The notes beneath the pieces are model-generated. The model saw only the letters and a list, made by a program, of their open reading frames with translations. It was not told where the DNA came from and made no database searches. Of a DNA stretch of 64,000 nucleotides, positions 3,001 to 37,058 are shown in pieces (positions within the stretch are counted from its first letter, which is position 1; every line of letters begins with the position of its first letter). Source of the DNA: a virus. The position numbers were made by a program, and so were the translations under genes. Where the stretch lies: the IMG/VR virus record IMGVR_UViG_3300047472_000102, positions 1 to 64,000 of that record. One strand, given 5' to 3'.

Positions 3001-5626
3001 CAGTAGTTGCCTTCGGTTCACTAGATAATGCTTCAGGAGCCTCACTGGTAGTCGTTTCCTTCTGTGGGGTAGATTCTTCCGTTGGCTCCGCCTTCGGCGT
3101 TTGCTGAGCCTCTGTGAGTTGTTCTGAAGGTGCACGGAGATTAAGCTTCGGAACATCCACCTGCTTCATATTAAGCTGGGGATATTGCTCTTTAATCGAG
3201 TTGGAAAGCTGAGCCAAAGCAGAAGCTTCTGCATAGACAGTACGAGCAAAATTCTCAGAATTTTCATTGCCAAGATGTACCGCGGCAGTAAACTGACGAG
3301 CTTCAGGAATCCATTCATTATTGGGACCAGCAGACTGGTACTTAACCTTCGCACCTTTACCATGTTCAATAGAGCGGTTCAGGGCACCAACCTTATTGCT
3401 CTGACCTTGAGCAAACATCTCAAGAGCCTGTGCTCTTTGTTGTGCCAATAAGTCATTACCAGCACTAATGGCTTCATTAATGCCTTGAACATGCTGAACC
3501 ATAGAAAGCTGATGAGATGCCTTCCCACCCTCAGTCGCAATTTGACGAGATACTATGTCTGATACAAAAGCCTTTCCTTCTGGCTTCGTATTCGTCATTT
3601 GGTCATAGGTTTGACCAGCACGAGTTACAGCGATGGAGGAACGGATTTGGTTCTTTTGGACTTCCGTTAATTGGGCATTCCCTTGATCAGCCTGATATAA
3701 GACCTTTTCTGCAAGATCAGGATTGACAGCTTGTGGAGCAAATTGAGCCTGTCCTGCTACTTGATTAGCAACAGTAACTGGATTGCTATTAGCAGGAATA
3801 AGATCAGGCTTTTCCAGAGTAAAAAGAGCTTCTTTTACATCTGGAATAGAACCAATAGATTGAGCAATCTTTCCATAGGTCTCAAACTTCTGATAATTTT
3901 CATCATCATGGCTTACATTCTGAAGGAATGCAGGTAGATCATTATTGAAAAGATCAGCATTGTCTTTCAGCTTTTGAGCCACAAAGAGAGCAGCAGATGC
4001 TCGATCTTCAGGACTATTTTGCTCATCTCTAGCTTCGGTAGCCATGAAAGCCATGGCTTCTACGAGGTCAGGTTTAGCACCTAAAGTCTGAACCATAGAC
4101 TCCAGATTACCACGAGGAATATTTAGCAAATCCTGGTTCGAAAGAGTCAGTGCATTTTGCACCTTACCAATGTAATCCTGTGCCTGTAGATCATCCTTGG
4201 GAGCCAAGGAAGACAGACCAGTCACAACATCATTAGTCTGAGTATTAGCATCATTAACCGCAGCAGAGACAGTATCTACACTATTAGGAGCAGCACTCTG
4301 CATATTGGCAATAATAGACTTGCCTTTATCATAGACAGCCTTTGGAGCACCTGCCAATGAAGCAGCAGCATGAGACAACACAGCAGGGCCTTCAATCGCG
4401 CCTGCCGAGAGACCACCAGCCAGCGCTCCCTGTACTACTTGAGACCCAAGATCGTCCGTCAAACGCTGAGTGGTATCAGCATGTTGCTGAATTGCAAGAT
4501 TTTGAGAGAGAGTACCACTGGCGTTTTGAAGCCCCTCTTCCAGAGTCTCTTTCCCCACATTCTGTAACGCTGGCACAAGTCCGGTACCATGTAGAGGATG
4601 CGCTTCGAACCCTTCTACCAACTTACCAGTGGCAGCAGCTAAGGGGCCTTGGATCGCAGCCGCTTCTAGACCTGCTGCGTCTGCTACTCGACTGCGTGCC
4701 TCCTCTGGAGAGTACCCCTGTTGAATATAATTTCGATACTCAGGGGATTTATTCGACAGGTCATCGAATGGCGTTGAGAGAACCTGTTGACTCACTTGTG
4801 CATAAGCACCACCTGCCTCCATCGTTCCGACAGATAGCGGTATGTTTCCTTCAGCAGTTTGAACCACGCGTGGAACGAGTCCCGTACCCTCCAATGAACC
4901 AATCTCTGACAGGGCAGTCTTCGCAACAGACCCCTCAACAGCAGTCTTTAATACATCTTTACCCACTTTCTGCATCACCGAGATTGCGCCGCCAGTAGGA
5001 GCAGCTGCAAGAACAGAGCCAATACCCTGTTCAGTCAGTTCAGCAGCAGAGGTAGGATTCTCAATAAGGCGAGCAGCAGCATCTACTGCTCCTCGTCCTA
5101 CAGAGTTCAATTCAGCACTAAAACGACCATTATCAGCAAGGTCTTTTTGATATTGAGCAGTGTTATCCTGCTTATCCAATTGTTCAGTAGTTCCTGCCAA
5201 GAAGCGGGAATTCTTCTGTTCCTGGCTTTGCTGGCCTTGAAAATAGGCAATGTCATTTGCAACGGTCCGACCCACAGACTGTGCAGCATCTCGACCAAAC
5301 AAACGGGAACCAAGAGTGACAGCACCACCAGCTGAATTGATGACACCAATGCCAATATTGGAAATAGCATCACCAAGGGTCTGACCTTGGCTATCCTGAA
5401 GGTTCTGGGTAGATGCACGATTGAGGTCTACATTATTGAGACTATTAACTACCTCTGGCCCATACTTCTGGGCAAAGGTAAAAGGGTCCATCTGTGCTCG
5501 ATCAACCAGTACCTGATTATTAGCAATATCATTGCCACGGTCGAGAGCAATATTGGTAGCAGTAGGGTTCTGAGCAGCAGCCAGAATAGAGGCAATATCA
5601 TTAGAATTAGGAAGATTATCTGCCAT
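1..5626 (-). CDS. Virion-encapsidated RNA polymerase (N4 gp50-like), N-terminal ~1875 aa; continues past the window's left edge
   Basis: Not in the ORF track. ATG at 5626-5624 follows GAGGATAGT. Spot-checked segments share one frame and carry N4 vRNAP motifs: A NYLEADGKTNGPI (~1200-1240), B DRGVTKNPLTISIYGSG (~845-895), C GVKGVPSLVIGTGDGMIMQ...TLKVFDGINL (~40-160). Confidence 0.95.
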   Translation of the reverse strand, partial: MADNLPNSNDIASILAAAQNPTATNIALDRGNDIANNQVLVDRAQMDPFTFAQKYGPEVVNSLNNVDLNRASTQNLQDSQGQTLGDAISNIGIGVINSAGGAVTLGSRLFGRDAAQSVGRTVANDIAYFQGQQSQEQKNSRFLAGTTEQLDKQDNTAQYQKDLADNGRFSAELNSVGRGAVDAAARLIENPTSAAELTEQGIGSVLAAAPTGGAISVMQKVGKDVLKTAVEGSVAKTALSEIGSLEGTGLVPRVVQTAEGNIPLSVGTMEAGGAYAQVSQQVLSTPFDDLSNKSPEYRNYIQQGYSPEEARSRVADAAGLEAAAIQGPLAAATGKLVEGFEAHPLHGTGLVPALQNVGKETLEEGLQNASGTLSQNLAIQQHADTTQRLTDDLGSQVVQGALAGGLSAGAIEGPAVLSHAAASLAGAPKAVYDKGKSIIANMQSAAPNSVDTVSAAVNDANTQTNDVVTGLSSLAPKDDLQAQDYIGKVQNALTLSNQDLLNIPRGNLESMVQTLGAKPDLVEAMAFMATEARDEQNSPEDRASAALFVAQKLKDNADLFNNDLPAFLQNVSHDDENYQKFETYGKIAQSIGSIPDVKEALFTLEKPDLIPANSNPVTVANQVAGQAQFAPQAVNPDLAEKVLYQADQGNAQLTEVQKNQIRSSIAVTRAGQTYDQMTNTKPEGKAFVSDIVSRQIATEGGKASHQLSMVQHVQGINEAISAGNDLLAQQRAQALEMFAQGQSNKVGALNRSIEHGKGAKVKYQSAGPNNEWIPEARQFTAAVHLGNENSENFARTVYAEASALAQLSNSIKEQYPQLNMKQVDVPKLNLRAPSEQLTEAQQTPKAEPTEESTPQKETTTSEAPEALSSEPKATTETGENTKSIRNEIEQPSERTSGDKQPVSESEAPVQKETVETAYPRLMSNEGTGANQFHAAYRLPDKPKSRLAKLISPINDLRKLLDTPKLMVEFMDGKDVNYNISGANLDALDEILSLGSNVMRAMNERMTLPAAKKILAAFTAGKPANRWKEGRMLNIMERKGNGFIYNKQLVQSAILAGINQSLNGDRLKPNLEASDVADIMGISPDRVTPAMVADFNRGQTQSDFIRNLASNIIDYWGITTNNKASLSQTQGIAEAVAIEVIHGLAKADLLSTGSFEYHDGDTHFTQNRVYFDQRPQALIDEIGKLGAASKLLDDMILTEKSKTLGISYGSPSGNIPVEQLRSPGVKNTPKQREALAHEGSTPYLLNEPMHRLMSNLGFEFFLNYMGGQIYQEGDLNVNHERSLEGKNRTLEYSYQNVMNQVEELRSHAEKAEKPITEYPAYYDFNMSKVGRMQMQGNNNPQSDKLAREIFMPTKVTLDLNDPKQEAQFWMTVAQGVGVKTEKVTRANAIQQAQDKTLGDAKVRPIIDTIAAFLKGGELPDGFGQTIIDAMPVGSTMHGLHGLLSVAQYLNAFKDGSDSKFEHYNYLEADGKTNGPIMTTALFASRITPDIIKVLRKGGIFLGEENRSLNDHILNRDPEDLYQATTTATGKAQDDFTQSISDNPKALDKLAALSRVMAAIDANITLGEDDENGVPTLKLDRGVTKNPLTISIYGSGIDGIAGKLASSLLDGIYKHMSDLTKNGGTLDGKTYDGFVGDLKELISEEVRLTKEKEIKFSPAKGSDKGGKSNSPQDFTFSPSQFNAFKSHVRVFFVNQMHQGIHDQILQHVEPSTSALQLATNLQSIFLTGAYQQAIVDKLLALKSQEGYHEGDFLSQSDLDQIMKDLKPLSPIVNTGTQNFFIAGNQKADIMDTVTVNGTKIAMPDTFARGIDGNGQSPAFVYGPDVAGVKGVPSLVIGTGDGMIMQDAATVRNAPKGTLKVFDGINLPATDIDESSRI

Positions 5627-33790: not shown

Positions 33791-35940
33791 ATGATAGAGA
33801 AAGACACACACAGCCTCACAGACGAGCGAGAGACCTATTGGTATATCGCAGGTCATCCAATTGACAGAAAGCGCTCAGCGAGACGCTGGATGGGAAAGCT
33901 CTATGGTCACGATCTCTGCAATGATCCAGTCATGAAGATATCGGTCCATGGAAGCAAAAACACACTGGTTCAATTTGAAGATAATGATGGATGGAAATCC
34001 ATGATCTTCACTTATTAGTGGGAGTAATAAACTATGTCTATAAAAAGAACACTAAGACCTGACATCAGGAGACACGATCTCCTTGGTGAAGACTACGGTC
34101 GAACCAAGAGACAGAATCGTAGATATCTTGGTCAGGCAATTGGTCCAATCCTATACCGGAAGATCAAGAACTATCGGACCTATGATGGTCTGATAACTGT
34201 CCATGAAAAACATATCAGCGGTAAAGAATATTACGAGCTGTATTACTAGGAGTAATCATCAGATGTATATCTACTATCATCTCTTCGAGAAAGAAGACGC
34301 AGAGTACTACAACATGCCTCAAAGCGTCATACAAGAAGGCACTGGAGATCCAATGCCATGGAACAGACCAAGCGATTGCTTGTGGATGGTTCCTGGTACA
34401 GTTGATCCAAACGACGATTAACAGGAGTAATCACATGGCAAGACGTAAGGAAGAGCATGACTACAACTTCGATCATCCAGACATGGATGAATTCGATGCG
34501 CATCATGTTGTGCATGGTGATCTATGGACAAAAGAGGATGATCAAGCTTATCGAGAATATATGAATAATAAGACTAATAAGTCTCATTTTCTCGGTAGAG
34601 AATTCATCTCAAACTAGAGGGTTAAATGAAATACCTCATACTTCCATTACTGGCAATAACCATGGTGGCTTGTGTATCTTACAAGCCACTTACTGTAGCT
34701 AATGCATCAATCAAACAATTGAGTGATGCTATTCAACAGGAGAACCAATGAAAAACCATACAATCAACGTCCAAGATTTCGATGATTGGGAAAGCATATC
34801 ACTTGCCAGTTCGTCATCTGCCAAGGGAACCAAGAGGCTAAGTCTACTGGTCCATCCACATAGTCAGGCTGTTCACTACAAGGTAAATACTAAGATTTAC
34901 CACAGCCTTGGCTCAGCAATAGAGGCATACAATGCAATACAACTATAACTCCAAGATTCTTGTCGAATACGACAAGGATCGCAAAGAGGTAATAACCTCA
35001 GTAATCGAATATCATTCAACCATTGATGTACCGAAGCTTGCTCGGTATTTCAGACAGAAAACAATAGGGATGTGAACCAATGGAGAAACCATTATTATGG
35101 GCTCTAATATTCATAGCAGTCCTTGCAGGATCGGTCTTGTTCAACCAGGATCAAAAGGTAGCAATGGACATCTGCCAACATACCCATTCGTATGGGGTGT
35201 GTCAGGATCAAATGAGGTGAACATCATGTTCCTGTTAGCCATCATAGCCATTGTGCTATTTGCTCTCTGCACCAGTACCAATATTGATGCGGAAGCAAAT
35301 CTCATTAACACTATTAATCGGTTCTTTCGAACCATGAAGGTAACTGCATTTGTCCTTATGGGTGCAATGGCAGGTCTCATTATGTGGGTTATCTGGATGG
35401 TTCTATGGATCGTCCAGATACCACTAGCCATGATCGGAATGGGTGCAGCCATTGGCTATGCAGCCACACGCAAAACCAAAAAGTAAACAACCTCTTTTTG
35501 TGAATAGAATATCCACACTGGAAAGGTGAACAGCTATGAAATTCAGGGTGCATTTTGAGAATAACGAGGGTGAACGCAAGGTCGAAGTAGTCGATGCAGA
35601 ACACCCAGAAAAAGCAGCCAACATCATTCGTAAGAAGCATGAAGGCTCATTCGTCATCAAAACCAAGATTGACCGTGAGGCAGCTTAAATGTCCAAGCTC
35701 AAAGGCATTTCACAACGTGAACTGGCTGAGATCGAAGATGAACATGAATATCTGACTAGCATCGATAAAATCTCCAAGCAGGATTTGGAGGAACAACAAC
35801 GTATTACTGATGAAGCAGATTACCAGCAATATCTTAAGGAAGTTGAATGGGAGATTGCTGAAGAAAATAGACGTATCCAAGACAACTATGAACATTCATG
35901 GGATGGCATGGATGATGATCCCTCATGGGATTGGGACTAA
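33791..35940 (+). other. Run of small early hypothetical ORFs (e.g. 33791-34018, 34034-34249, 34263-34421, 34435-34617, 34748-34948, 35226-35486 membrane, 35689-35940 acidic)
   Basis: Tightly packed, several preceded by a repeated GGAGTAAT RBS; no recognisable domains. Confidence 0.6.
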
Positions 35941-35941
35941 A

Positions 35942-36005
35942 GCATCACTGATGAGACTTGATTAGTTGAAATAATAGCTTCAGAAATGGAGCTATTATCT
36001 GATGC
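35942..36005 (+). ncRNA. Hammerhead ribozyme (type I)
   Basis: GCATCA-CTGATGA-[GACT TGATT AGTT]-GAAA-[TAATAGCTTC AGAAAT GGAGCTATTA]-TC-TGATGC; complete core, AUC cleavage after 35999. Confidence 0.85.
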
Positions 36006-36050
36006 AATGTGTAGCATCTTTATATTAACCCCATTAATAGGAGATTTATA

Positions 36051-36455
36051 ATGGGCCTTCTCGATAACCTCGCAGCAGAACGTAACCGTACTGCTAACAC
36101 TTCCAGCACCACTCGTCGTACCAATACCGATACTCGTGAGCAGGCCAAGGTCTGGCTCAATGTAGGCTTTGAAGTTGACGGCAAGTTCGTCAACCTGCCT
36201 TTGGGTCTGGCTATCGATACCATGGAGCCTGTACAGGTCCGTGGTCAGAACCAGGAATGGCTGGAACTCCAGACTGCACGTAATGAATTGCTTCAGGCAA
36301 TTCAGGAAGCAGGTGCTGAACTCGAACCCGGTCAGGAGCGTGAGCTTCCTCTCGTGGTTCGTATTCGTCATGTCAATGACGCTGTACAGATCGATGCCAA
36401 GAGCAATCCGCTCAGCATGGCAAAGGCTGGCATCAGCTTCAAGAAGGAAGCTTAG
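36051..36455 (+). CDS. ssDNA-binding RNAP II coactivator (N4 gp2 / Drc-like)
   Basis: AKVWLNVG...FVNLPLGLAIDTME...ARNELL...LEPGQ family pattern. Confidence 0.8.
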   Translation: MGLLDNLAAERNRTANTSSTTRRTNTDTREQAKVWLNVGFEVDGKFVNLPLGLAIDTMEPVQVRGQNQEWLELQTARNELLQAIQEAGAELEPGQERELPLVVRIRHVNDAVQIDAKSNPLSMAKAGISFKKEA

Positions 36456-36466
36456 TATCAATAATC

Positions 36467-36494
36467 GAGGAGAGCCAAAAGCTCTCCTCTTTTA
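36467..36494 (+). terminator. Rho-independent terminator
   Basis: GAGGAGAGC-CAAAA-GCTCTCCTC-TTTT. Confidence 0.75.
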
Positions 36495-36629
36495 AATTGA
36501 AATACGATAGTAAATATGGATGACTGATTCAGTCCACATTTATTATCCTATTAATCCTCGACTATAATCTAACACACCCAAAACAGGTCATTTTCAATGA
36601 GTGACACCTGTAACCTATCGAGGTCTAAA

Positions 36630-37058
36630 ATGATCGACTTATTTAGAGGAGAATATGCATTCCTAAGCAACTTCTATCCATGCATTATTGAGATTAATGG
36701 ATATAAGTTTAAAAGCTCAGAAGCAGCTTATCAGGCTGCTAAATCAGAAGACCCAATAGATTGGGCTAGATTTCAGCATTACGATGCATCCACATCCAAG
36801 AAGCAAGGAAGAGAGCTAAAGCTCCGTCCTGACTGGGAAGAGATCAAGCTAGACGTTATGCGTCAGATTCTTGCAGTCAAATTCATAGACAATCGAGAGC
36901 TACTCATGGCACTCCTAGCCACACGTCCACATGAACTCGTAGAGGGTAATTGGTGGGGTGATAGGTTCTGGGGTGTCTGTAGTGGTCAAGGACAGAACCA
37001 ATTAGGCAAGCTCCTCATGGAATTGAGAGAGCGTTTACAAGGAGACCTACCATGGTAA
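36630..37058 (+). CDS. NADAR (YbiA-like) family protein
   Basis: FLSNFYP, SSEAAYQAAK, RPDWE.IKLDVM, LVEGNWWGDRFWG, GQNQLGKLLMELR. Confidence 0.92.
   Translation: MIDLFRGEYAFLSNFYPCIIEINGYKFKSSEAAYQAAKSEDPIDWARFQHYDASTSKKQGRELKLRPDWEEIKLDVMRQILAVKFIDNRELLMALLATRPHELVEGNWWGDRFWGVCSGQGQNQLGKLLMELRERLQGDLPW

Follow-up and report, generated by a model that had tools for sequence, protein, structure and literature searches.

A compact phage hammerhead motif with a natural G.U wobble directly upstream of the gp2-like gene of an N4-like phage

Introduction

Hammerhead ribozymes have been known in phages since 2011, where they flank single genes in the intergenic regions of phages and prophages (PMC3088659). 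In the haloviruses HF1 and HF2, a hammerhead is located 13 nt before an early gene, and a transcript 5' end has been mapped to within 3 nt of its cut (PMC3088659). In the RF03152 family (structure 8YDC), a 6-bp pseudoknot, formed with the loop of a hairpin further upstream, takes the place of helix II, and the G10.1-C11.1 pair is kept (PMC11300833). In the literature searched, we found nothing relevant on hammerheads of N4-like phages or the Schitoviridae.

Here, we describe a hammerhead motif in an uncultured N4-like (Schitoviridae) phage from rhizosphere metagenomes, which is represented by an IMG/VR record with terminal repeats. The window is the whole stretch of this record that was analysed, 64,000 nt in length, and all positions refer to it. 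A preliminary description of the window had reported a complete hammerhead ribozyme in the leader of a gene for a gp2-like transcription coactivator. We have compared this element, referred to below by its first position as the 35942 element, with other phage hammerheads and with the same locus in related phages.

Results

Anatomy and position of the element

The element and its two flanking genes are arranged as follows.

35689-35940, plus strand: upstream small ORF of 83 aa, with its stop codon TAA at 35938-35940 (ORF list)
35942-36005, plus strand: type I hammerhead, directly 5' of the gp2 gene and on the sense strand relative to both flanking genes
35942-35947, plus strand: stem I, 5' strand, GCAUCA (read from the sequence; descriptor and covariance models)
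35948-35954, plus strand: catalytic core C3-A9, CUGAUGA (agrees with the invariant columns of the class alignments)
35955-35967, plus strand: stem-loop II, GACU, loop UGAUU, AGUU (sequence reading)
35968-35970, plus strand: core G12-A13-A14, GAA (sequence reading)
35971-35998, plus strand: stem-loop III, with a GAAA tetraloop at 35983-35986 (sequence reading; pair probability 0.8-1.0)
35999-36000, plus strand: predicted cleavage site, after C17 (35999) and before U1.1 (36000), triplet AUC (from motif position)
36000-36005, plus strand: stem I, 3' strand, UGAUGC (read from the sequence; descriptor)
36051-36455, plus strand: N4 gp2-like gene, 134 aa (hhalign, PHROG 4099, tblastn)

Stem I reads as an open-ended helix of six Watson-Crick pairs, GCAUCA/UGAUGC. 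Stem II consists of four pairs between GACU (35955-35958) and AGUU (35964-35967), and the pair next to the core is a wobble, G35955.U35967. Stem III has 12 pairs, of which the first is A15.1-U16.1 (A35971-U35998) and one is U.G; it had previously been given as a 10-bp stem. The element has the core C3 U4 G5 A6 N7 G8 A9, G12 A13 A14, A15.1-U16.1, H17 and the three helices of a type I hammerhead, and departs from this type at 10.1-11.1, where the G.U wobble takes the place of G-C. None of the 13 strictly conserved core bases is changed, and 6/6 pairs of stem I and 12/12 pairs of stem III are intact.

Our reading thus agrees with the preliminary description in the core and the three helices with their coordinates, in the AUC triplet with its predicted cut after C35999, 51 nt 5' of the gp2 ATG (36051), and in the position between an early ORF and the gp2 gene on the sense strand. 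The word "complete" is appropriate for the core and the helices; it is too strong for stem II, where G10.1.U11.1 replaces a pair that is G-C throughout the class and where the helix hardly forms in the predicted ensemble.

The window was searched on both strands with a type I descriptor (core, GAAA, A15.1-U16.1, H17 and three helices), and the 35942 site was the only match. It is also the single hammerhead site found by the descriptor in the whole 75,370-bp genome. In 400 dinucleotide-preserving shuffles, there were three matches at stem thresholds of I>=4, II>=3 and III>=4, and none at I>=5, II>=4 and III>=6.

A class of compact phage hammerheads

We scanned IMG/VR with a pattern that contains the core and stem II as in the 35942 element, with C or U at 11.1, and obtained at least 94 loci. 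More than 60 of the loci listed hold unambiguous type I hammerheads that are built in the same way. Thirty of them were aligned (alignment A2), giving the model R1; A2 is 98% paired and has a covariation score of 0.65 versus 0.12 in shuffles, with strong covariation in stems I and III. R1 finds one match in the window, at 35942-36005 with 48.9 bits, from a set that had been selected partly with the element's own sequence. For this reason, R1 was used to find further hammerheads in the same contigs, and this gave 120 matches, 100 of them distinct. The model R2 was built from 25 R1-found hammerheads whose stem II is unlike the search pattern (alignment A5, 99% paired, covariation score 0.90 versus 0.19 in shuffles, with all three helices covarying). 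The 35942 element is the sole match to R2 in 64 kb (41.5 bits, E about 6e-11). Because this match does not depend on selection by stem II, membership in the compact phage class is well supported, and the 35942 element is a genuine class member by sequence and fold.

In members of this class, stem I is 6 bp long, stem II is 4 bp long and capped by a loop of 5 nt, stem III varies, and the cut site is GUC or AUC. The ribozyme starts 0-3 nt past an upstream stop codon, and a ribosome binding site (RBS) and the next start codon follow 15-45 nt beyond stem I. The layout of the 35942 element is the same, in that it starts 1 nt after the TAA and is followed by AGGAG at 36039-36043 and by the ATG 45 nt beyond stem I. 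Such a layout also agrees with the published phage hammerheads that flank single genes and with the HF1/HF2 hammerhead (PMC3088659). The stem II loop UGAUU is common to several class members, for example L026:1845-1907 and L077. The exact 24-nt core pattern of the 35942 element is absent from IMG/VR.

The preliminary description had proposed a check against the Rfam hammerhead models. At gathering thresholds, the window contains five tRNAs and no hammerhead. In E-value mode over 271 bases, RF03152 is the sole hammerhead match, a weak one at 32.6 bits (gathering score 56.3), and its E of 6.7e-4 covers these 271 bases only and becomes about 0.16 when scaled to the whole window. RF00163 and the rest of the hammerhead clan have no match at E<=10 in the same bases. 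Other class members behave similarly. The copy in the phage OLIVR1 scores 31.4 bits against RF00163, whose threshold is 34, the copy in L076 scores 29.8 bits, and many class copies in three other loci have no Rfam match at E<=0.01. The class is poorly captured by Rfam, and thus phage annotation pipelines miss it; the OLIVR1 copy, for instance, is unannotated. The 35942 element is then a further member of an already known and abundant kind of phage ribozyme, possibly an attenuated or decaying one.

The scans also gave several observations on the class as a whole. Some IMG/VR contigs carry arrays of hammerheads, with 8 copies in about 5.3 kb at L078:6752-12067, 5 copies in 1.7 kb at L055:1258-2955 and 4 copies in 1.9 kb at L049:8477-10409. 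There is a subclass with a G-rich loop II (GGGG, UGGC), which is complementary to the first bases past stem I (ACCC, GCCA). This pseudoknot between loop II and the 3' flank is clear in L031, L032, L050, L062, L095, L058 and L096, and there is no signal for it in the subclass with an AU loop. The best complementary run between loop II and the flank of the 35942 element is 3 bp, below the shuffle mean. A recurring false positive is a conserved 26-nt coding stretch in a prophage gene family, which mimics the core and GAAA and was seen in L028, L030, L037 and about 40 other IMG/VR loci. A BLAST match of the stem III region to rV5-like phages was rejected as chance; the matching site is in the gap that separates an NrdD-like gene fragment from an HNH endonuclease gene, and a hammerhead core is absent there.

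The wobble pair and predicted folding

The 10.1-11.1 pair is G-C in 25/25 independently found members (A5) and in 95/95 parsable distinct class members, and it is G.U in the 35942 element. Each of the remaining three stem II pairs occurs as four pair types among the 25 members of A5. In a complete IMG/VR scan for the GACU...AGUU form, there were 45 matches and no hammerheads, the matches being coding sequence of the prophage family or otherwise non-hammerhead. The member at L026:1845-1907 has an identical stem-loop II save for a C at 11.1. A further difference is found at 15.2-16.2, which is U-A in the 35942 element, giving the AUC triplet, and C-G in 25/25 (A5) and 27/30 (A2) members; L105 also has U-A here.

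In the RNAfold ensemble, stem II has a probability of 0.03, compared with 0.52 when C is placed at 11.1 and a class median of 0.96. The active secondary structure is predicted to lie 2.2-3.1 kcal/mol above the minimum free energy (MFE) structure, in which ACUGAU pairs with AUUAGU and the core is sequestered. The probability of stem I is 0.13-0.45 when the downstream sequence is included, because 36001-36005 pairs with 36014-36018.

The A9/G10.1 position is a metal site of the hammerhead. Our literature search found no citable published activity data on the C11.1U change. From the conservation of the pair in the class and general knowledge of this metal site, we suggest that U11.1 probably lowers activity. 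The G.U wobble and the competing pairings (CUGAU with AUUAG, and stem I versus the downstream hairpin) would probably make cleavage slower or less complete than in typical members. The natural G.U at a pair that is otherwise invariant offers a direct way to assess how much 10.1-11.1 matters in the compact class.

The gp2-like gene and its leader

The downstream gene had been proposed to be a homologue of N4 gp2, and profile comparison confirms this: hhalign to N4 gp2 gives a probability of 99.1% and an E of 5e-19 over 99 aligned columns. The protein also matches PHROG 4099, and tblastn hits were obtained in 198 N4-like phage records. A PDB profile search with gp2 gave no match. N4 gp2 is an essential cofactor of middle transcription. 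In GenBank, gp2 homologues (L002, L003 and others) are labelled "RNA polymerase RNAP1 subunit A", "single-strand DNA-binding protein" or hypothetical. The first of these labels seems to be a misannotation of the gp2 cofactor that has been propagated between records. The upstream 83-aa ORF, an accessory early ORF, has no Pfam or PHROG match and no homology to the gene in the same place in OLIVR1. Three hairpins are predicted or recognized around the gp2 gene.

36001-36018, plus strand: alternative hairpin GAUGC, 8-nt loop, GCAUC (predicted fold), competing with stem I
36030-36055, plus strand: leader hairpin (predicted fold), with the Shine-Dalgarno sequence AGGAG (36039-36043) in the loop region and AUG (36051-36053) in the 3' strand
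36467-36497, plus strand: intrinsic-terminator-like hairpin of 9 pairs, 6 of them G-C, followed by a T run, directly 3' of gp2

The alternative hairpin pairs GAUGC (36001-36005) with GCAUC (36014-36018). The preliminary description had pointed it out, and it is indeed favoured in the predicted fold of the longer context. In the predicted 3' product it has a probability of about 1.0 (-5.0 kcal/mol) and leaves one 5' nucleotide unpaired. Downstream repeats of stem I show no enrichment among class members (8/45 versus 5.1 expected, with 7 found upstream), and this count speaks against the downstream copy as a class-wide switch.

The leader hairpin is predicted to pair the start codon (CCCAUUA with UAAUGGG). 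In OLIVR1, RHEph16, ort11, L007 and L013, the AUG is likewise predicted to pair with a CCAU segment upstream of it, and AUG-pairing hairpins are located at L002:1087-1121, L003:1111-1145, L005:1096-1130, L007:1474-1508 and L013:1174-1208. Their flanking pairs differ among relatives (UA/UA, GA/UC, CA/UG, GAU/AUC). This predicted hairpin may be a conserved translational control of gp2. The next gene beyond the gp2 terminator, at 36597-37058, encodes a NADAR-domain protein (PF08719, E 9e-24).

Distribution and conservation among N4-like phages

A survey of gp2 leaders in related phages had been suggested at the outset, and it speaks against conservation of the element at this position. The gp2 loci of 24 relatives (OLIVR1, RHEph16, ZX86, ort11 and 20 metagenomic relatives) contain no hammerhead (0/24), and neither does that of N4. 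When whole records were searched with R1, the class was present in 3/34 other N4-like records, namely OLIVR1, G003/L076 and G004/L086. It is absent from RHEph16, ZX86, ort11, N4 and four other records, and from 23 further N4-like records. The class is thus sporadic in the N4-like phage family.

The OLIVR1 hammerhead (R1, 46.5 bits) is located at 3960-4009 of MT234338.1 (= L153:1501-1550), between gp12 and gp13. This copy is a sense-strand element of the early region, with the gp13 start 20 nt downstream of it and gp2 3 kb downstream. The G003/L076 hammerhead is also in the early region, and that of G004/L086 adjoins the end of the virion RNA polymerase gene. L076 is an N4-like contig with a terminase 67% identical to that of the rhizosphere phage. 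Its copy (L076:1821-1868, minus strand) has stem I GUGUAU/AUACAC and a 3' flank as in OLIVR1, with stem II GACU/AGUC versus GUCC/GGAC; it looks homologous to the OLIVR1 copy, with putative compensatory changes in stem II.

OLIVR1 is the closest cultured relative (terminase 75%, gp2 about 55-62% identity), and the closest gp2 homologues are in Logan contigs (65-71% identity). Searches of IMG/VR and JGI metagenomes for gp2 loci, and a terminase-based search, gave no relative closer than OLIVR1. Among the genomes reached, a hammerhead at gp2 is unique to this lineage. The gp2 leader of OLIVR1 resembles that of the rhizosphere phage in the last ~30 nt only and the genes upstream are unrelated, which suggests that the ribozyme is at a mosaic junction.

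A variant genome from a second rhizosphere study differs at 26/1201 positions (97.8% identity over 1.2 kb). It has no substitutions in a 311-nt tract at 35779-36088 (P about 0.01), which runs from the 3' end of the upstream ORF through the 64-nt ribozyme and the leader and takes in the first 38 nt of gp2. At third codon positions nearby, the difference is ~5.7% (17/299), and ~3.6 changes are expected in 64 neutral bases. This tract is weak evidence of constraint; it gives no covariation, and a recent exchange would explain it equally well.

Discussion

On balance, we favour the view that the 35942 element is a real hammerhead. It would cut the early transcript shortly before gp2, probably with lower efficiency than its relatives. 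From the motif, its class, its context and its deviation, as observed here, we infer that gp2 would be co-transcribed with the upstream ORF, that the transcript would be cleaved, and that the stability of the gp2 mRNA may be affected. When the plus-strand early transcript is made, the ribozyme would cleave itself after C35999 and separate the gp2 message from the upstream ORFs. The released RNA would have a 5'-OH and a small 5' hairpin (36001-36018), followed by the RBS and gp2, and would end at the terminator (36467-36497). Given the position of this terminator 3' of gp2, a cut at 36000 would leave an RNA of ~0.5 kb that carries gp2 only.

Could the resemblance to a hammerhead be accidental? 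Rfam gathering thresholds are not reached and the RF03152 match is insignificant at the scale of the whole window, as might be expected of an ordinary intergenic hairpin flanked by hammerhead-like bases. We consider such an accident very improbable. This is because 0/400 shuffles attain the motif, R1 and R2 each find the element as their sole match in the window, and its layout and stem II loop agree with the class; the shuffles and the R1/R2 scores effectively refute it. Loss of function deserves more weight. The G-C at 10.1-11.1 is invariant in the class with no other G.U case in the IMG/VR scan, stem II is seldom formed in the predicted ensemble, and U-A stands at 15.2-16.2 where nearly all members have C-G. 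These features would suit a once-active hammerhead that has been switched off by a C-to-U change at 11.1 and competing folds, and that now serves as a spacer or hairpin in the gp2 leader; the sporadic occurrence in the family also fits gain and loss. However, the sole deviant position adjacent to the core still pairs, the conserved core bases and all pairs of stems I and III are intact, and there are no substitutions in the 2.2%-diverged variant where several would be expected in neutral sequence. An inactive or decaying relic is therefore a serious reading, though in our judgement a rather unlikely one.

The preliminary description had gone further and proposed that self-cleavage separates and stabilises the coactivator mRNA, timing the early-to-middle switch. 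In such a regulated switch, cleavage would be gated by the hairpin or by the weakness of stem II, and a hairpin-capped gp2 mRNA with a 5'-OH would be stabilised. Ends that carry a 5'-monophosphate stimulate RNase E, and mRNAs are protected by stem-loops at the 5' end. In the predicted product, the alternative hairpin takes up the 5' end save for one unpaired nucleotide, the active fold is predicted to be metastable, and the downstream gene is truly homologous to that of the N4 middle-transcription cofactor, all of which would be in line with such a switch. On the other hand, the downstream stem I repeat occurs at chance frequency in the class, no ligand- or protein-binding feature is evident, and no relative has a hammerhead before gp2, so that the N4-type programme does not need one. 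The timing-switch model is thus possible, without specific support, and we regard it as improbable. Slightly more doubtful still is the idea that the wobble, the core-sequestering pairing and the hairpin opposing stem I are no sign of decay and together make a deliberately slow or condition-dependent hammerhead (responding, for example, to Mg2+, temperature or transcription speed). Such a hammerhead would meter the amount of gp2 mRNA set free and protected, and in this way adjust when middle transcription begins in this phage lineage.

If the 35942 element is an active hammerhead, as we favour, it would be a clear example of a hammerhead whose task can be stated: in an N4-type phage, it would release the mRNA of a known transcription cofactor that is essential.

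The closest known system is the set of type I phage hammerheads of Perreault et al. 2011 (RF00163, clan CL00010). These have the core, the topology, the open stem I and the sense-strand intergenic placement in common with the 35942 element, and the same role has been proposed for them, that is, the cutting of long phage transcripts into gene-length mRNAs (PMC3088659). Unlike that set, the 35942 element has G10.1.U11.1, U-A at 15.2-16.2 and an unusually long stem III of 12 bp. It also has no detectable loop II pseudoknot and a sub-threshold Rfam score, and it is a single copy, whereas theirs occur in a cluster. The HHphage hammerhead of HF1/HF2 is likewise located in an early-gene leader, a few tens of nt before the start codon. 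However, it is a different structural variant from an archaeal virus and needs high salt. With the pseudoknot (RAGATH-1) hammerhead RF03152, the 35942 element shares CUGAUGAGACUUG, GAAA, a long stem III and a short stem I. It differs in having a normal 4-bp stem II and scores 32.6 bits against the gathering score of 56.3; by reading, the upstream hairpin at 35918-35937 has no loop complementary for an RF03152-type pseudoknot. The OLIVR1 hammerhead belongs to the same compact class, but it is at another locus, its triplet is GUC, its stem III is short and its 10.1-11.1 pair is the canonical G-C.
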